Positions 1 through 9,288 of a DNA stretch of 17,443 nucleotides are shown in pieces; position 1 is the stretch's first letter; each line of letters starts with the position of its first letter. This DNA comes from a virus (Duplodnaviria; Heunggongvirae; Uroviricota; Caudoviricetes): the IMG/VR virus record IMGVR_UViG_2698536519_000009; one strand, written 5' to 3'. The notes under the pieces were generated by a model, which saw only the letters and a list, made by a program, of their open reading frames with translations, ran no database searches and had not been told where the DNA came from. The position numbers were made by a program, and so were the translations under genes.

Positions 1-237
1 TCAATAAATCCCATCATTGCGATCAACCTCATCCTTAACCATTGATGCGAGCAGTTCTTCCAGTTTCTGCGCTGATAGCTTTACCTGGTGATCTTCAGCA
101 TCTTCCCGGGCTATTGTGGTTCGCGCAGTGGCTGATTTTGCTGACATCACCACAGGGGGCAGACGGACCATTGAACCATGGCCTCCGGAACAAATAAGGG
201 CAAAAATAACAACCACTATCGAAAGCTCACAAACTAA

Positions 238-451
238 CCGCAGCACGTTCCTGCATACGACGTGTCTGCGGCATAATCCCAATGATTACTCCCTGACAGG
301 ATTTGCAGGCCACTCAATATCAGGTGCAGTTGATGTATCAACACGATTCAACAATACCCGATATTTATTCCATGCCTCCAGCAACGATCTTTCTTCCTCC
401 GTTGCGATTTCCAGATCTACAGCATCCTGCAGTGGCGCAATATACTCACTG
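238..451. repeat. Direct repeat copy A (~215 bp): hairpin plus 3' end of a tfa-type gene
   Basis: Aligns by eye with 1288..1500 at a constant offset of ~1049-1050 with roughly 90% identity. Covers a degenerate copy of the hairpin (238-271) and the last ~55 codons of the Tfa-like ORF. Confidence 0.8.
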
Positions 452-555
452 AATTCCTGGATGTAGAACTGTGTGGTGACGGTCTTCCAGCCATTCGGCT
501 CCTGCTGTATCGAAGCATACCAGGCTATTTCAATATCGCTATGCTGCGGCAGCAT
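286..555 (-). CDS. Short Tfa-like ORF: unrelated 38-aa N-terminus fused to a Tfa C-terminal domain (tfaX-like remnant or small chimeric tail fibre assembly protein)
   Basis: 89-aa ORF. The C-terminal 51 aa ([51 protein letters not shown]) are nearly identical to the Tfa C-terminus; the N-terminal part ([38 protein letters not shown]) is unrelated. RBS AAGGGG sits 5 nt upstream of the ATG. Confidence 0.55.
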
Positions 556-611
556 TTAACCCCTTGTAATTCATCGCCATAATTGATTTAATTCACAAAT
601 AAAACTATAAC

Positions 612-1280
612 ATGGTGAAATCAATGAAAAAAAACACAGATGATGGGGCTAAAATTTACACACCACTTACCCTAAAGCTTTATGACTGGTGGGTTTTGGG
701 AGTATCAAATCGGCTTGCATGGGGATGTCCTACAAAGGAACACCTTCTTCCACACTTTCTGGAACATGTAGGTAACAACCATCTGGATATTGGTGTTGGA
801 ACTGGGTTTTACCTTACTCACGTACCTGAGAGTAGTCTGATATCTTTAATGGATTTGAACGAAGCTAGCCTGAACGCGGCATCTACAAGGGCTGGGGAAT
901 CAAAAATTAAACATAAAATTAGCCATGATGTTTTTGAACCTTATCCCGCGGCGTTACATGGTCAATTTGATTCCATTTCCATGTTTTACCTTCTTCACTG
1001 CCTGCCTGGAAATATATCTACAAAAAGCTGTGTAATACGCAATGCGGCGCAGGCCTTAACTGACGATGGAACTCTATACGGAGCCACAATTCTTGGCGAT
1101 GGAGTTGTGCACAATAGCTTCGGTCAAAAACTGATGCGCATTTACAATCAGAAAGGCATCTTTTCAAACACAAAAGATTCCGAAGAAGGCTTAACACATA
1201 TACTCTCAGAGCATTTCGAGAATGTTAAAACCAAGGTTCAAGGTACTGTAGTAATGTTTTCCGCTTCAGGGAAAAAATAG
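612..1280 (+). CDS. Class I SAM-dependent methyltransferase (small-molecule/protein type rather than DNA methyltransferase); cargo gene
   Basis: 222-aa ORF with Rossmann motif I LDIGVGTG, acidic post-I residue (LMDLNE) and motif II/III-like FDSISMFYLLHCLP. An alternative start at 624 (MKKNTDD...) has better spacing to GGTGA. GC content is clearly below the flanking tail genes. Its position next to tfa fragments recalls the ybcY methyltransferase pseudogene of the E. coli K-12 DLP12 prophage (from memory, unverified). Confidence 0.75.
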   Translation: MVKSMKKNTDDGAKIYTPLTLKLYDWWVLGVSNRLAWGCPTKEHLLPHFLEHVGNNHLDIGVGTGFYLTHVPESSLISLMDLNEASLNAASTRAGESKIKHKISHDVFEPYPAALHGQFDSISMFYLLHCLPGNISTKSCVIRNAAQALTDDGTLYGATILGDGVVHNSFGQKLMRIYNQKGIFSNTKDSEEGLTHILSEHFENVKTKVQGTVVMFSASGKK

Positions 1281-1287
1281 CATCCAA

Positions 1288-1320
1288 CCGCAGCACGTTC
1301 TTGCTTAAGACGTGCTGCGG
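1288..1320. terminator. Stable stem-loop between the convergent methyltransferase and tfa genes (putative bidirectional terminator or RNA-stabilising hairpin)
   Basis: ccgcagcacg / cgtgctgcgg perfect 10-bp stem, extended by tctt/aaga with a one-nt bulge and gctt loop. Lies 8 nt after the methyltransferase stop and 15 nt after the tfa stop. No U-run directly follows on either strand, so intrinsic termination is uncertain. Confidence 0.45.
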
Positions 1321-1500
1321 CATAATCCCAATGATTACTCCCTGACAGGGTTCGTAGGCCACTCAATATCAGGTGCAGTTGATGTATCAACACGGTTCAG
1401 CAACACCCGATACTTTTTCCAGGCTTCCAGCAATGAGGTTTCTTCCTCCGTTGCAATTTCCAGATCTGCAGCATCCTGAAGCGGCGCAATATGCTCACTG
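1288..1500. repeat. Direct repeat copy B (~215 bp): hairpin plus 3' end of tfa
   Basis: Partner of 238..451. Together the two copies bracket the methyltransferase gene and its divergent promoter region. Confidence 0.8.
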
Positions 1501-1919
1501 GCTACCTGCATCAGGTTGTTTTTTGTTTCTTCCGCCTCCCGGATCCGGAACAGTTTTTCTGCTTCTGCATCTTTCACCCAGGTTGTGCCGTTCCACTTCT
1601 GAAACTCCCCTTCCGGCGATAACCAGGTAACATTTTCCGGTAATAAGCCGAGTTCAGAAATAAATAACGCGTCGCCGGAAGCTACGTCATAAACCGTTTT
1701 ACCCCGATGATCTTCAACGAGATGCCACGATGCCTCATCACTGTTGAAAACAGCCACAAAGCCAGCCGGAATATCTGGCGGTGCAATATCGGTACTGTTT
1801 GCTGGCAGACCTGTATGAGGCGGAATATATGCGTCACCTTCACCAATAAATTCATTAGTTCCGGCCAGCAGATTATAAATTTTTATGGTCCGTGCTTGTT
1901 CACTCATTCTGAATGCCAT
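1335..1919 (-). CDS. tfa: Tail fibre assembly protein Tfa
   Basis: 194-aa [57 protein letters not shown]..., strongly resembling the Tfa proteins of E. coli cryptic prophages and lambda Tfa. Translationally coupled to stf. Confidence 0.9.
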
Positions 1920-4900
1920 TATGCAAGCCTCACAATATAGTTAAATGCGATGTTTTTGACGGTGTTTTCCGCGTTACCAGCAGCGTTAACGGTGATGGTG
2001 TGTCCATGTGAACCAATCGCAACGGAGTGCGTATGTGCACCAATACCTACAGTATGTGCATGTGCGCCAGAACTTGCTGCAGTACCAGACAGCGAGTGGG
2101 TATGAGCACCTGCTGACTGTGTCTGAATACGTTGATAATACGATCTACGGGAAGAAGTCCCCGGGCTTACTTGATACTGTGAATCCTGGACATAAGTGAA
2201 CCCACCGCCATCATAAAATGCTAACGCAGAACCGCCGCCTCCTGGCCAACGAATACCATTACCATGAGTATGATCACCGGCAGACCCCGTAGAGCCACTC
2301 AGACTGTGCGTATGCGCCCCGGTGTTATTCGTGGATTTAGTGCCGTAATCAAACGACGATGTGGTTTTCGTCCCCAAATCCGTACTGGATGCGCTGGCGC
2401 TGTGGGTGTGCGATTTAATGCCGTCCTGTTCCTGAGACAATACGGCTCGATCACTGGCGGGCTTGCCCTTAATCGTCCAGCCACGCATATCAGGAATAAC
2501 GCCTGACGGATAAGCCACTGCAAGTTTCGGGTAAGCAGATTTGTCAAAAGTCTGCCCCTGCATCAGGGCATAACCAGACGGAACGGTATCTGATGGCCAC
2601 GGGATTGGTGCACCGACTGGGTAACTTTCTGGTGGAAGATTTTTCGAGGTATAAACTTCTGCCCAGTCTTCCTCAAAACCATAACCGTCTCTTGAAGAAC
2701 GGTAGAACAGACCACCATTTCTGTAATGCGCCTTCATCTGCAGGGTCCGGCAACTTCCGACTCCGGTATAGAAGTTAACCAGAATATAGCTGTCGCCAGA
2801 GCGGGTGACATTGTAAGCGCCTGATTCGGCATTCCAGGGAACGCCACCATCCGCATCGGCATATGTATCCGTTGCCCTTCTGGCAAAAGCAGCCACATGC
2901 GCAGCGGTTAAAGTAATATCTCTGGAACCATCAAACTCAACACCAGAAACCAGTCTTGGCGTTTGCAGCTTTGTTGCTGTTAATGCATTACCGTTCAGAC
3001 TTGCGGACAGTTTGGTTCCAATAATCAGTTCGCCGGTTGCGTTATCAATAGCAACCGGTCTTAATGTATTCCAGCCACCATAAACATCACCTTGATTGGT
3101 AAGCAGCAGGTAAGTTTTAGCGCCATCATTACGCCATAATGCCCCATACTCCCCACCTATCATTCGAATCTGATTACCACCACGCGCTACAATTTCGTCT
3201 GTGGCAAAAAGTTTTTTGCACGACAAGTTATCGTTAACGATTAACGAATGAGACTCATAAAAACCACGCCCACTCTTAAAATCAAGGATAACGTCCGCCG
3301 CGATACATTCAGTCGCTGGATTTGTTGCCCCAAACTTATAGGTCGTATCATTAACAACGAGATCAGCACCAGGTGCGGATATTGACAGGCCATCTTCGAT
3401 AAACGCAAAAACAGGGAAAGCAGCGCCATCAACATAGAACACAGAGCGCAAATCATCGCCCTTATTACTCATCATTATTGAGTGGATGGCTCGTTCATTG
3501 TTTTGATATTGCCAGAACATTCCATAAGCATAACGCCCCCTGTCAGTCCAGCCACCAGGCATAACAAATCCGTTAAACTCGCAGTTATTCATCGGATCGC
3601 CTGCGGTTCGCGTTGCCGTGGTGATAATGACCCTTGATGCCAGTTCGCTTACTGAGCCAGCAGAACGCATAACAACAACAGGGTAATATTTTCCAGATGT
3701 TGCACCTGCAGGAGCGTTAACCCGCACATAACGCATACCACGCTTATCAGCAAAGTCTGTTTTACTGACCGCGTTAATGTTGTTCAGGAAGCGTCCCTTA
3801 TCGGGTATATCAGCGCCGTTCTGGTCTTTCTGCAGACGTTTCTCTGCATTGTCATAGGCTGATTTTACTGCCTTTGGCGTTGCCGCCAGCGTTTCAGACG
3901 TACTGTTGGTCGCACTGCTGAGCTGTACTATCCCCTTTTTCGTCGTACTTGCATCCTCAAGCGCCACGGCGGATGCAATATCCTCTGCCCGTTTTGCCGC
4001 TGTCTCAGCGCGCGTTGCTGCGGATTCCGCCGTACTTTTGCTCTGAGCTGCCGCCGTCGCACTGCCAGCTGCCTCTGTCGCCTTCGTGGATGCCGTCGTG
4101 GCGCTGCCCTTCGCTGCTGACGCCTGTCTGGTCGCCTCATCTTTTGAAGCAGACGCCGATGATGCCGATGACGCCGCCGAACTGGCGGACGATGCGGCAG
4201 CCGTTTTTGAGGATTCTGCGCTGGTCTCCGACGCTTTCGCGTTCGTCTCGGATGTCTTCGCTGCCTCTTTTGAGGCCGCCGCACCCCGTGCCGAGGTGGC
4301 AGCTTCTGACGCCTTCGTGGTCGCTGTGGATGCAGAAGTGGCTGCCGATTTTTGTGATGCTGCGGCATTCGTTTCTGACGTTTTCGCGGCACTGGCGCTG
4401 GTAGCTGCCGCGCTTTTTGATGACTCTGCAGCAGCAGCACTTTTTGATGCCTCAGAGGCTTTTGCTGATGCCGTTCCTGCGCTGGAAAAAGCCTCCTGAG
4501 CCGACGTCGCGGCCTGTCCGGCTGACGTGCTGGCTGCACGTGCTGAGCCTGCAGCATCAGTCGCATGGGTTGCCGCCTCACGGGCTGATGTGCTGGCATC
4601 GCCGGCTGACTTCTTCGCGGCTGCCGTGTTCTGTGCCACTGCGGACGCGTTACGCGCCACCTCTTCCACCATCTGCTCAAAGCGGCGCAGTGCCTCCGGT
4701 CGGACATCATCCTCCGTCATGGCACCGAGAAAATCATTCAGCGTACCTGGTCTGGAACCTTCATAGACGGTAATGGTCCCGGCATGTGAAGGCGGAAAAC
4801 CTTCAACCAGCAGGGTGACGCTGTACTGACCATGCTCAACATCCATGCTGTAACGTCCGGCTTCATCCGGATTTTCAGAGGCCACCGTGTTCACCACCAC

Positions 4901-4996
4901 CGTGCTGCTGGTTCGTCTGGCCTTCAGCACAATGGTGCAGTTCTGTACTGGTTTTCCTGTGCCATCTTTAAGCACGCCAGAAATTTTTACTGTCAT
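1919..4996 (-). CDS. stf: Side tail fibre protein Stf (mosaic: conserved N-terminal domain, Ala/Ser/Thr-rich repeats, divergent central domain, conserved His-rich C-terminal domain)
   Basis: 1025-aa ORF. N-terminus [28 protein letters not shown]... and C-terminus ...[40 protein letters not shown] match lambda Stf from memory, as does the [24 protein letters not shown] motif. Stop TAA overlaps the tfa ATG (TAATG). Confidence 0.9.
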
Positions 4997-5147: not shown

Positions 5148-5747
5148 TCAGAAACGGTATCCGATACCAACAATAAATGCATCCGTTCGCCAGTCGCCAC
5201 TACCGGAACCTTCATAAGCAAGGTCAATGGTCACGGATTCGGTCGGGTTAAACTGCACGCCAGCCCCCCACGCCAGAGACGTGTTGCTGTGGCGACCGTC
5301 ATCACTTCCGGTCAGCACATCGTGCGTTTTCCCCTTGTTGTCAATTACGCGGAGATAATCCCCGGAGAAAGTCGACACACGGCTGTAAGCCACACCCGCC
5401 ATCGCATACGCGCTGAACCATTCATTCACGCGTACAGACGGCCCCGCCATCACGCTGAACCAGCGGTTACGCACGGAATCTTCATGCCAGCGGGTATCGC
5501 TGTAGCGCGTTTTTTGCTCATCCTCAGCATTGGCATAACTGAAGGACGTAATCAGCCCCAGCGCGTCCGTAAACTCATAACGGTATTTCACGTTAATCCC
5601 GTTCAGATCATCACTACCGGGAACGTTCGTCGAGGCATGGAGATACCCCGCGCTCAGCGTGGACTGATGTTCTGCTGCACTCGCTGGCGTAGCAGCGGCG
5701 ACCTGCCAGACTACTGCGGACAAAATAACAGCACATAATTTACGCAT
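5148..5747 (-). CDS. lom: Lom-family outer membrane beta-barrel protein (Ail/Lom/PagC/OmpX family), lysogenic-conversion moron
   Basis: 199-aa ORF with a signal peptide (MRKLCAVILSAVVWQVAAATPASA|AEH) and the family-typical C-terminus ...DLAYEGSGSGDWRTDAFIVGIGYRF, as in lambda Lom. Lies between J and stf, as in lambda. Confidence 0.88.
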   Translation of the reverse strand: MRKLCAVILSAVVWQVAAATPASAAEHQSTLSAGYLHASTNVPGSDDLNGINVKYRYEFTDALGLITSFSYANAEDEQKTRYSDTRWHEDSVRNRWFSVMAGPSVRVNEWFSAYAMAGVAYSRVSTFSGDYLRVIDNKGKTHDVLTGSDDGRHSNTSLAWGAGVQFNPTESVTIDLAYEGSGSGDWRTDAFIVGIGYRF

Positions 5748-5814: not shown

Positions 5815-8800
5815 TCAGCTAATCGTGATGCCTGCAGTGGCTTTCTTCATCACCACAACCAGCAAATCGCTGATACTTGCTGTGGGATACCAGTTATTTA
5901 CCAGCCATGCTGACACCGAAAACTCCAGTGTCATGTGACCGTGACCGGCAGGCATATCAATAACACCACTGTAAATCAGCGTATTATCCAGCGCGGTACG
6001 GTTATAAATTTCAGCACCGTTTTTCCGCACTATCAGACGGCATGAGGAGTAAATATCAGTATGCTCTTTCTCATGTTTAGCGCCGCTGAATGCCACCGCC
6101 GGAATAACAATCTGCCGGTCAAACGGCTGATCGTCATAAACCCTGACGGTAATGGTTCCTGATGGCCACCGCTCCGGTGCACGGGAGTCCCGGGGGAAAG
6201 CTTTGCCCACTGTTTTAACGAGATCGCCTTCAATCTGGTTCGCGGACAATTTTCCCAGAACCCGACAGTTCTCGTTAATCGTGACGTTGTTGAGCGTCCC
6301 GGAGTTCGCATTCACGTTACCGCTGATATCGGCATTTTTCGCCGTCAGCCGCCCGTCCGGTGTCAGGGAAAATGCCGGAGGATTACCGCCGCTGGTAATG
6401 GTGGGAGCCGTCAGATATTTCAGGAACACTTCATTCATAAATATCTGATCGCCCTGACCAACAAACATCGGCTTTGTGTTGCCATTCGCAGGATTAATCA
6501 TCGCAATCCTGTCTGCCGCCAGCAGCACCTGACTCTGCATTCCTGCTGGCGTATTCTCAATACCGGCACCGATACCCGCAATATAAAGGCGTCCGTCCTG
6601 CATCTGCTGCAGTTTCACGGCCCACATGCTGTTCAGGTTATTATTTGTATCAACCTGAACTTTCTGTATCTGCTGGATTGCCGCACTCTGATTTTCCAGT
6701 TTTTTATTGACGGTCTGCGTGATTTCATTGCTGACATTCGTAATGGACGTCCTGATTTCAGCCAGGTCCGGCGCAAGCTGACCGTTATCAATCTGCGTCC
6801 ACAGCTCCTGGGCCAGATGTGTTTTCCCGATTTCTCCTTTGAAAAAATCCAGGTAACCTTCCGCATCATCGCTCGCCCGACCGACAGCCTCCACGAATGC
6901 CGATTTGCCAACAGTATTCACACTGCGGATATAAAAATAATAATCATGGCCCGGTTTGATATTGATACTGGCAGCTATCCAGTACAGCGCCGAGCCAAGA
7001 TAGCGGGCTGCGGTTTCAACCTGCCTGATATCCGCAATCCGCTTTTCCGAGAACCAGAACTCAAACTGTACCGTCGGGTCATAAACGGCAAGATGCGGCG
7101 TGGCGGTTATCTGAAAATAGCCCGGCGTCAGCTCAATCCGCGACGGTGCTGCCGGTGCGGCAATCCGGAAGGTGGTGGTGGCAGGTTCACCCTGCTGGCC
7201 ATAGCTGTTTATCGCCCGCACCGTCAGGGTGTATTCCCCGAGCGGCAGGCCGCTGAAACGGTGCTCCGTGTCTGCGGTGATGGCGGTGGTCACCAGTCTG
7301 GCATCCGTTCCCTTACCACTGGTCAGGCGCAGACTGAAGCGCACGCCCTTCACCACCCGCGGCGTGTCCCATTTAGCCTGCGCCAGATACTGGCCGTCAG
7401 CTGCGCTCACCTCCACCGTCAGGTGCTGTACTGCCGGTGGGATGACGCTGTTCAGGGAGCCTGACTGCGGCTCAAAGCGGGCACCGTTATCCACGATGGC
7501 TTCTTTTTCCGGTACGTGCTGCACCGCCGTGATGGCAAAGGTGCCGTCCGTGTTTTCCCGGATGGAGACACAGCGGAACAGGCGACGGCGCAGTGACGGC
7601 AGGGAGAGTCCCCACACCCCGTATGTCTCCACACCATCAGGCAGGGTACTGACCTGTATCCGGTCCGGCGCGGGGTGTTCGGTGATGTCCACACTCACCG
7701 GCTTACCGCTGCCGTTAATCAGGTTCACCGTGGCGGCACCGGTCTCCGGAAGTGTCACTTCACGGTCCAGCGTCAGGGTGCGGGTGGCAGCATCAATGGA
7801 CAGGACACGTCCGCCGGTCAGAGTCCCGGCATAGTCGTTATCACAGATTTCAATGATGTCACCGGGTGTGTGCCGCAGCCCCTGAGACCCGAGCGTGAAA
7901 TCCACCGTCTGCGTTTCCAGCAGTTCAGTCTTTATCACCCACAGTCCGGCACGGTGGGCCTGACCGCGGCTGGTACAGCCGAACGCGTCCATCTTCAGCA
8001 GGTTGCGTCCGTAGCGCAGTATGGCTTCCGGGTCTTCCACCAGTTCCGTGGAGGTCTGCCAGCCGTTCTGCGGGTCGGTGTAATTCACCTCCACCGCCGT
8101 GTGCCGGTCCTTCAGGGCACTGAAGCTGTAGCGGAATCCCACGCCGTTATCATCCACCACCACATCGCTGTTGGTGTACGGCCACACCACATCCGACGGG
8201 CGGTCCTGAACGAACGTCAGCGTCTGACCGTTCCATACCGGCATACAGCGCATCGCAGAGCAGAAATCACTGAGAACGTCCCACGCCTTACGCTGTTGTG
8301 CCAGGTACGCATTAAAGGTCATCCGCGGCTCTGTCCCCCCGAAACCATCCGGGACCGTCTGGTCGCAGTACTGCCCGATGGCATACAGCGCCCACTTGTC
8401 CACATCCGCCGCCCCCAGACGTTTTCCCATGCCGTAGCGCGGGTGAGTCAGCATGTCCCACAGGCACCAGGCCGGGTTGTTGCTGTATGCCGGTTTCAGA
8501 CTGCCGTCCCAGATACCACTGTACGTGCGTTTTTCCGGGTCATAGTTTGACGGCACCTGGATGATGCGACCGCGGATATGGTAGTTCACCGTCATCTGCT
8601 GGCCGCCGAACTGCTCCGCATCCACCTGCAGCCCCACAATGGCCGTGTTCGGGTAGCACTGTTTCACATCGATGATTTCGGTGTATGACGACCACAGCGT
8701 CTTATTCTGCAGCTGGTCCGTGGTGCTGTCCGCCGTCTCCCGGACCATCCGGATGTTAAAGGGCCGGGGAGGCAGATTATCCAGAATCACCGAGGCCAGG

Positions 8801-9288
8801 AACTGTGAGGTGGTCTTGCCGTTAATGGTGACGTCCTTTTCCGTCACCCAGCGGCCATTACGCTGTAACTGAATCAGAATCCGGACAGAGGAAGGATTAC
8901 GGTCGCCCTTTGACGTGGTCTGCACCAGTGACTGCACCCCGAAGGTAACCCGCAGGCGGTCAATGTTCGCGGACGTAATGGTGCGCGTCACCGGTTTTGC
9001 CTTCGTCACTTCCACGCCCAGTCCGGTTTCAGCTCCGGAGGACTCAAAGCCTTCCGGTGGTGTCTGCTCCTGCTCCCCGGCGCGCCAGACCGCCGTCACA
9101 CCGTGTATCACGGGATTGCCGTCCGTGTCCGTCAGTGGGGTTTTGTTCACCAGAATACTCTGCAGTCCCTTCACCGGACCTTCTATCGGTCCCTCACCAA
9201 TCGCATCAATCACACTCATCATCTGCGTGGATTTGAGATTATCCTTCGCCTCACGAGGCGTGTGTGCCTTACCGCCACCTTTTCCCAT
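5815..9288 (-). CDS. J: Central tail fibre / host specificity protein J
   Basis: 1157-aa [42 protein letters not shown]...; the N-terminal ~750 aa are highly similar to lambda gpJ. The coiled-coil-like region and C-terminal ~150 aa are divergent. RBS AGGGGAAGG precedes the ATG. Confidence 0.93.

Follow-up and report, generated by a model that had tools for sequence, protein, structure and literature searches.

According to a published summary of work on the Tfa protein of phage Mu, this protein has a non-conserved N-terminal domain, which binds the fibre, and a conserved C-terminal helical domain, which mediates trimerisation (PMC9608196). In Escherichia coli K-12 the prophage remnant DLP12 carries, in order, 'tfaD, the frameshifted methyltransferase gene ybcY, tfaX and then appY, and the spacer between ybcY and tfaX has been reported to contain an RpoD-holoenzyme SELEX site and to bind H-NS (PMC3946193). 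Our literature search found incidental mentions of tfaX but no functional study, these mentions being the SELEX sites, one macroarray study in which the K-12 tfaX mRNA changes, and one screen in which a tfaX over-expression clone raised the kanamycin MIC 3-fold; for ybcY nothing was found. The mosaicism of lambdoid phages is familiar from the work of Juhala and Hendrix, as are the morons that these phages carry. Haggard-Ljungquist et al. (1992) reportedly described how phages of the lambda, P2 and Mu types exchange their tail-fibre and tfa genes horizontally.

The DNA analysed here, hereafter the window, is a stretch of 17,443 nt (IMG/VR record IMGVR_UViG_2698536519_000009) which, from its ORF list and Pfam matches, is the tail end of a lambdoid prophage. 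Its minus strand carries J (5815-9288), lom (5148-5747) and the side tail fibre gene stf (1919..4996, 1025 aa; ORF list and Pfam), and directly downstream of stf lies a full-length tfa gene (1335..1919, minus strand, 194 aa) that matches PF02413 over the full profile (positions 1-130, E 4.8e-44). Convergent with tfa on the plus strand is a moron, a class I SAM-dependent methyltransferase gene of the ybcY type (612..1280; Pfam and phrog_2132), and an 11-bp perfect-stem hairpin lies between the two genes (1288..1320; fold z-scores: minus strand -4.7, plus strand -5.9). Beyond a divergent spacer of 56 nt (556..611), the minus strand carries the subject of this study, a chimeric, tfaX-type ORF of 89 aa (286..555; phrog_2341). 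This ORF had been reported in an earlier note on this DNA, and it was confirmed, with its ATG start, from the ORF list and the translation. It is followed by a hairpin (238..271, minus strand) that is a copy of the terminator-like hairpin of tfa with a 1-nt bulge (-24.1 kcal/mol, z -3.1; terminator-like scan match at 255..239), and then by the remnant of a gene with a DUF4376 domain (1..189, minus strand; annotated by PGAP in E. coli 55989 and NMBU-W13E19), which RefSeq records as a pseudogene with an internal stop. The first 2 kb of the window have a 99.9% match in E. coli 55989, beside ompW/yciE/trpA, where PGAP calls only positions 286-462, as a "tail fiber assembly protein" pseudogene without an N-terminus.

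The earlier note had likened the ORF to a recombination scar such as tfaX of DLP12. This likeness turned out to be literal, as sequence comparison identifies the ORF as the ortholog of K-12 tfaX and as an E. coli-wide remnant. Residues 1-88 match the phrog_2341 profile end to end (positions 1-88 of 88, E 4.1e-61), and the 176 nt from 440 to 615, which hold the 5' part of the ORF and the start of the methyltransferase gene, are present in 3868 of 5426 complete E. coli genomes, K-12 included. K-12 tfaX (ylcE) has the same DNA from the ATG to codon 59 except for one synonymous base at codon 15, the same divergent class I SAM-methyltransferase neighbour (ybcY), and the same tfa fragment (tfaD) upstream. 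In contrast to the window ORF, it has a TGA at codon 62 (61 aa), another tfa 3' haplotype and a 3' junction to appY; the allele of the window is an intact 89 aa, is followed by the DUF4376 remnant, and lies in a prophage at the ompW/yciE site. The chimeric ORF is also found in plaque-forming lambdoid phages, for example ev243, the PhiR series, Kati, Turner and 2G7b, usually under the label "tail fiber assembly protein". It is no new kind of element and is already known as tfaX and as a PGAP pseudogene; what appears to be new is the detail of its chimeric ancestry.

To describe the setting of the ORF in other viral genomes we used the best 80 of 591 IMG/VR matches, a biased sample of loci that are not phylogenetically independent. 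Among these best 80 of 591 matches, the methyltransferase gene lies upstream of the short ORF in 75 loci, a full-length-type tfa is found beyond the methyltransferase gene in only 32, and 48 have no gene encoding a Tfa N-domain within 2.5 kb upstream. The ORF therefore travels with the methyltransferase rather than with the fibre. In the window itself it is not adjacent to the fibre gene, since tfa and the opposite-strand methyltransferase gene lie between it and stf.

Origin of the N-terminus and the fusion junction

The first 38 residues had been described in the earlier note as unrelated, with the suggestion that they be sought in other genomes. They are unrelated to Tfa, but they are not an orphan sequence, being the N-terminus of the phrog_3893 family, here called gene X (residues 3-37 match positions 2-36 of 79, E 3.3e-7). 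The search elsewhere, run with phmmer for residues 1-42 against 1.84 billion cluster representatives, gave an exhaustive list of only 18 clusters, which comprise variants of the chimera and a few small phage proteins of phrog_3893 (55-117 aa) that are 54-68% identical over residues 1-37 and unrelated beyond. Codons 1-37 of the chimera (445..555, minus strand) come from the 5' end of a gene of this family, and over these residues the chimera is 76% identical to the gene X consensus.

Gene X is a real, constrained gene. It encodes 79-80 aa across the Enterobacteriaceae, matches no Pfam domain, and in NCBI and UniRef widely bears the label "DNA polymerase V"; gp28 of HK225 is a member. Intact gene X has a pN/pS of 0.25 (35 synonymous to 30 nonsynonymous), and an AlphaFold2 model (pLDDT 90.7) predicts one compact domain with the order helix-strand-helix-helix-hairpin (H5-15, E24-27, H28-37, H44-54, E57-60, E70-74). 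In about 70 of 80 IMG/VR loci gene X is divergent from a dinI-family gene, an umuD'-like ORF often follows, and in 60 of 67 loci the spacer between dinI and X contains a LexA-box-like site, CTG-N10-CAG. Sequence searches of Pfam, NCBIfam and PDB with gene X gave nothing, and a fold search of its model against PDB gave no significant match (best E 0.15); many of the weak matches to the model are winged-helix domains. The phrog_3893 proteins are an uncharacterised, well-conserved and probably SOS-linked family of small proteins that is widely mislabelled.

Given this parent, the N-terminal 37 residues might keep part of the phrog_3893 activity, with Tfa helices taking the place of the C-terminus. 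In such a reading the parent would be a winged-helix-like, SOS-linked small protein, and both the 76% identity to the X consensus and the retention of X's translation signals would be as expected. However, the most conserved residues of gene X are those of its C-terminal half (alignment A1), including the stretch ANxWIE...TFRDVSTQEGExRTFQLFNPNGGL, and this half is missing from the chimera, and with it the third helix and the beta-hairpin of what is predicted to be a single compact fold. The LexA-box-like site is absent from window positions 520-660, and in some loci the ORF has stops at codons 12 and 29. We consider residual gene X function exceedingly unlikely.

The ancestry of the chimera can be read from an IMG/VR contig (L096) in which an intact, 80-aa X is divergent from the same methyltransferase gene. 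The window is identical to this contig at all 6 nt that follow the methyltransferase stop (1281-1286), at 617 of 669 positions of the methyltransferase coding sequence (612-1280, 92%), at 53/56 in the spacer (556-611), at 76 of 87 in codons 1-29 (469-555) and at 14 of 24 in codons 30-37 (445-468), and then falls to the random level of 40/159 in codons 38-90 (286-444). The unit common to the two therefore runs from 6 nt past the methyltransferase stop into X. At the switch, the sequence is CAGGAACTGAGCAAG in gene X, CAGGTAGCCAGTGAG in tfa and CAGGAATTCAGTGAG in the chimera (codons 33-37; 445..459, minus strand; read directly from the alignments), and from these three sequences we infer that the join lies within a patch of microhomology. 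The chimera is thus composed of X codons 1 to about 35 fused in frame to tfa codons ~142-194. Two B2-type DLP12 remnants (L007 and L008) were also considered as examples of the ancestral arrangement of methyltransferase and X, and were rejected, being deletions to ompT.

The same comparison bears on the expression signals of the ORF. A good RBS had been said to be retained, and there is a Shine-Dalgarno-like AAGGGG (565->560) 4 nt before the ATG; it is not a relic of tfa, since the spacer is 53/56 identical to that before the intact X, and so it is the RBS of gene X. Because the RBS, the start codon and probably the promoter were inherited from gene X, the chimera in the window could well be transcribed and translated, and on these sequence features its expression is plausible. 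The spacer also contains a promoter-like site for the methyltransferase gene, TTGATT-17-TATAAC. The promoter hexamers quoted for tfaX in PMC3946193 had no unambiguous placement on the window sequence.

With only 56 nt between the start codons of the two divergent genes, and with a K-12 spacer that carries an RpoD SELEX peak and is bound by H-NS (PMC3946193), the 5' part of the ORF could instead have been kept only as upstream promoter DNA of the methyltransferase gene. The alleles themselves argue against this. Between the window and locus L172 there are 7 differences in the 111 nt of the first 37 codons and 8 in 666 nt of the methyltransferase gene, so that the 5' part of the ORF is the less conserved of the two rather than the more conserved. 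In addition, the B2-type DLP12 remnants keep the methyltransferase gene with only ~86 nt of upstream sequence. A purely cis-regulatory role is for these reasons very improbable.

The retained Tfa domain

Codons 38-89 and the stop (286..444, minus strand) are the 3' end of a tfa gene and encode only the conserved C-terminal Tfa domain. Residues 31-86 match positions 75-130 of the 131 in PF02413 (88.3 bits against a cut-off of 22.1), and in an alignment with Mu Tfa (U; chain B of PDB 5YVQ) residues 32-86 correspond to its residues 123-174. The earlier observation that this stretch is almost unchanged from Tfa was borne out, as the alignment of codons 36-89 with codons 141-194 of the resident tfa is free of gaps and contains 5 amino-acid and 12 synonymous codon differences. 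The function that the earlier note had ascribed to the stretch, contact with the fibre, has to be reversed, as it is the N-terminal domain that binds the fibre and the conserved C-terminal domain that trimerises (PMC9608196). By the alignment with Mu Tfa residues 123-174 and these domain roles, the ORF keeps the oligomerisation module without the fibre-binding module, the opposite of what a mini-chaperone presupposes.

A functional mini-chaperone had been the other proposal of the earlier note, in which the C-terminal Tfa domain, made from its own RBS, aids folding or trimerisation of the side tail fibre. Several features would fit this proposal. The PF02413 match is strong (88 bits), the ORF is intact in about 80% of the loci sampled (best 80 of 591 IMG/VR matches), the dN/dS between the two copies of the tfa 3' end in the window is low, and there are viable phages, such as ev243, with no annotated full-length lambda-type tfa between the tail protein gene and the methyltransferase gene. 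Against it, the fibre-binding N-domain is absent, and the ORF, often truncated, persists in tail-less remnants such as DLP12.

An orphan oligomerisation domain might alternatively act as a decoy or poison, co-assembling with the Tfa of the resident or of a superinfecting phage and interfering with fibre assembly. The segment, the proposed trimerisation domain of Tfa, hardly differs from the C-termini of many Tfa proteins in E. coli phages, and the ORF has start signals of its own that are independent of the late operon. It also sits in a moron region, and exclusion genes are common in such regions; in variants of this reading, the ORF would be a regulator or a prophage-encoded exclusion factor riding with the methyltransferase moron and expressed independently of the late operon. 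If true, the decoy reading would mean a prophage-encoded interference function that rides with the methyltransferase moron. However, PADLOC gave no significant match for the ORF, nor for gene X or the methyltransferase, the structure of the chimera is predicted with low confidence (pLDDT 48.7, from a shallow alignment), and there is no experimental hint of interference. Recent mutations in the ORF bear no sign of purifying selection and nonsense alleles are frequent, as described below. Interference with fibre assembly is in our judgement highly improbable, and the regulator and exclusion variants are to be regarded as highly unlikely as well.

Relaxed constraint and decay

The earlier note had proposed comparing synonymous with nonsynonymous differences between the two repeat copies. 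The ratio is indeed low, with 12 synonymous and 5 nonsynonymous codon differences; as a test of the short ORF it is confounded, because the divergence predates the fusion and the C-terminal part has repeatedly been replaced by recombination. The divergence between the copies built up while each still belonged to a full-length tfa gene, in different phages. The low paralogue ratio that would favour a mini-chaperone is therefore inherited from full-length tfa ancestors and from recombination. The replacement is apparent from an allele that is 83% identical to that of the window (P0039, locus L172). By NG86, the N-terminal part differs by 2 synonymous and 5 nonsynonymous changes only, too few for a verdict, and dS is 0.64 in the Tfa-derived part as against 0.02 in the adjacent methyltransferase gene, from which it follows that the C-terminal part has been repeatedly replaced from functional tfa genes, importing synonymous-rich divergence.

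We therefore relied on polymorphism among 76 ungapped IMG/VR copies, subject to the sampling bias named above, in which variants present in at most 3 loci were counted as rare (an arbitrary cut-off) and the others, which are tract-like, as common. In codons 38-77 of the chimera the rare variants are 0 synonymous to 11 nonsynonymous (one of them a stop), in contrast to 7:1 in the same 40 codons of full-length tfa from the same loci (Fisher p = 1.6e-4); common variants number 16:9 and 3:1, respectively. Over the whole chimera (codons 1-77) the rare variants are 4:20, a pN/pS of 1.36, as against 25:14 in the whole of full-length tfa (Fisher p = 2.7e-4), with 17:10 and 18:11 among the common ones. 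The methyltransferase gene has 9:14 rare and 8:6 common variants, and the rare variants of the chimera do not differ significantly from these (p = 0.11). The 37 X-derived codons taken alone have 5 synonymous and 10 nonsynonymous changes (2 of them stops), a pN/pS of 0.45 that is not significantly different from neutrality or from intact X (p = 0.25).

Disabling alleles are common. Truncation affects 16 of the best 80 of 591 IMG/VR matches and results from a stop at codon 12, 29 or 62 or from a frameshift, and the K-12 TGA allele is found exactly in 606 complete genomes, with the TGG version of the same haplotype found exactly in 9. In a protein census the forms ranged from 48 to 142 aa and came exclusively from Escherichia or Shigella; one of 82 aa was present on about 1000 contigs and one of 55 aa on 694. 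The PDIEWP motif, invariant in Tfa, is missing from many forms, among them these two widespread ones. The chimeric protein is under no detectable purifying selection, and its alleles, with their nonsense mutations, frameshifts and diverse 3' junctions, show it to be in decay. With the recent mutations in the retained oligomerisation domain all nonsynonymous or nonsense, against 7:1 in real tfa, with abundant variants lacking an otherwise invariant motif and with truncated alleles common, the mini-chaperone proposal is supported neither at the protein level nor by the domain content, and we regard it as very unlikely.

Judged from its sequence, the ORF combines truncated pieces of identifiable parents, a defined junction, independent disabling mutations and, over its whole length, a neutral substitution pattern, the marks of a fusion scar. 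Some points stand against a scar, namely the in-frame fusion, the usable RBS, the intact state of the ORF in about 80% of the sampled loci and its presence in phages that are viable and form plaques (ev243, the PhiR series, Kati and Turner), as do the non-significant comparisons for the X-derived codons and with the methyltransferase gene. The macroarray and kanamycin results for tfaX would likewise allow for expression and for some effect.

Duplicated tfa 3' ends and comparison with known systems

The Tfa-derived part of the ORF belongs to a longer direct repeat. Copy 1 (236..462) and copy 2 (1286..1511) share 227 nt that are 89-90% identical with one 1-nt indel, far beyond chance, and that span the last ~59 tfa codons and ~50 nt past both stop codons, hairpin included; copy 2 holds the 3' end of the full-length tfa. 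These copies bracket the methyltransferase cassette. A synthetic query from which the cassette had been deleted identified a cassette-less allele whose tfa leads straight into the DUF4376 remnant at the ompW/yciE site (e.g. NZ_CP043406.1). In one such cassette-less locus, L169, the tfa 3' end is a hybrid that is identical to copy 1 on its downstream side (left) and to copy 2 on its upstream side (right), with a switch near window position 345. Recombination between the two repeats would be expected to yield just such a hybrid, and the cassette-less state could be a deletion or could be ancestral. E. coli genomes have at least 3 alternative 3' junctions within the Tfa-derived part, at window positions ~236, ~309 and ~331. 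Another setting of the cassette of tfa, methyltransferase gene and 89-aa ORF is near smpB, behind tail fibre and tfa genes of the P2 type.

We conclude that the ORF is most likely a neutral, in-frame scar of a fusion between X and tfa that is linked to the methyltransferase moron, and whose tfa-like DNA serves as homology for gain, loss and shuffling of the cassette. The starting state may have been a methyltransferase moron in its normal divergent position next to the small gene X (~80 aa, phrog_3893). The short microhomology would then have been the site of an illegitimate join between X codon ~35 and, in frame, tfa codon ~142, and the resulting chimera would have inherited X's RBS, start codon and probably its promoter while losing the C-terminal half of X and the N-domain of Tfa. 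What persists is the DNA, in that the tfa 3' fragment of the chimera and the 3' end of the resident tfa bracket the cassette with direct repeats of ~227 nt, and these arms are also homologous to the tfa genes of many phages. Homologous recombination in the arms could remove or insert the cassette, could swap the DNA downstream, and may have moved the cassette behind both lambdoid and P2-like tfa genes.

As a protein, the ORF is likely to be of little importance for phage biology, because it is a common tfaX remnant. For annotation, the name tail fibre assembly protein should be avoided for the chimera, which counts as a gene in several phage records and in PHROGs. The locus provides a clean, dated example of a moron bracketed by duplicated tfa 3' ends, which then act as recombination arms across lambdoid and P2-like prophages.

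With the phrog_3893 genes the chimera shares the RBS, the start codon and the first ~35 codons, all donated by gene X; unlike them, it has a methyltransferase gene rather than dinI as its neighbour, and it lacks the LexA-box-like site and the conserved C-terminal half. With the Tfa proteins (lambda Tfa, Mu U and P2 G; Caudo_TAP, PF02413) it shares the conserved C-terminal domain in residues 31-86, but not the N-terminal fibre-binding domain, the neighbouring fibre gene or the purifying selection of full-length tfa. The cassette as a whole resembles the morons and mosaic joints of lambdoid phages, in which an accessory gene follows the late operon with a promoter and a terminator of its own and is bounded by sequence common to many phages, with evidence of exchange through the conserved tfa 3' end. 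Unlike those joints, one boundary of the cassette in the window is a duplicated gene fragment that makes an in-frame chimeric ORF.

The methyltransferase and the mobility of its cassette

The class I SAM-dependent methyltransferase gene of the K-12 ybcY type (window 612-1280, plus strand; phrog_2132) behaves like a discrete moron. On the IMG/VR contig L096 it sits between dinI and gene X, the phrog_3893 gene, and elsewhere it lies 3' of lambdoid and of P2-type tfa genes. The unit that the window shares with L096 extends from 6 nt past the methyltransferase stop codon into gene X. The junction between the methyltransferase and the short chimeric ORF is present in 3868 of 5426 complete E. coli genomes. 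NCBIfam and PADLOC searches with the window methyltransferase gave no meaningful match. The same cassette of tfa, methyltransferase and 89-aa ORF also lies in a P2-like prophage remnant near smpB (L170-L173, for example CP058571.1 1169290-1177559), where it is followed by dinI and a DUF4760 gene, and this shows that the cassette has moved between siphovirus-type and myovirus-type prophages.

RefSeq annotates a 45-aa ORF on the minus strand (window ~1225-1362), named 'hypothetical protein' in 55989 or 'nucleocapsid protein' in BW25113, which overlaps the 3' end of the methyltransferase gene and the tfa terminator hairpin. This looks like a spurious call.

The gene X family

Window 445-555, the 5' part of the 89-aa ORF, derives from a phrog_3893 donor. 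This family is a well conserved phage protein of Enterobacteriaceae, 79-80 aa in length, with members in IMG/VR loci L089-L168 and in phage HK225 (gp28; L005 3501-3800), and is widely mislabelled as 'DNA polymerase V'. In nearly all cases dinI is divergent from the phrog_3893 gene, with a LexA-box-like CTG-N10-CAG between the two at 60 of 67 loci, and a umuD'-like ORF is often the next gene after it. No Pfam domain was found in phrog_3893. Its AF2 model is a confident, single winged-helix-like domain (pLDDT 90.7), for which a fold search of the PDB returned no significant match. The family may be regarded as a candidate SOS-linked regulator, as yet uncharacterised. In Escherichia phage vB_EcoS-716R3 the phrog_3893 homolog lies a few genes downstream of a retron-type reverse transcriptase gene (L006, 594-2078), itself directly 3' of the tail genes.

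Prophage end and side tail fibre

At the end of the prophage, a DUF4376-domain gene remnant on the minus strand (window 1-189, continuing past the left edge; annotated by PGAP with an internal stop and a missing N-terminus) is adjoined by a truncated ompW. Strain NMBU-W13E19, which lacks the cassette, carries a gene of the ash family and one for a Rha-family regulator between this remnant and ompW.

Over its first 2 kb, the window matches E. coli 55989 at 99.9% identity. Despite this identity nearby, the side tail fibre is 1025 aa in the window (1919-4996, minus strand) and 1056 aa in 55989 (L001 7919-11089), and fibre-gene length therefore varies among otherwise near-identical prophages.
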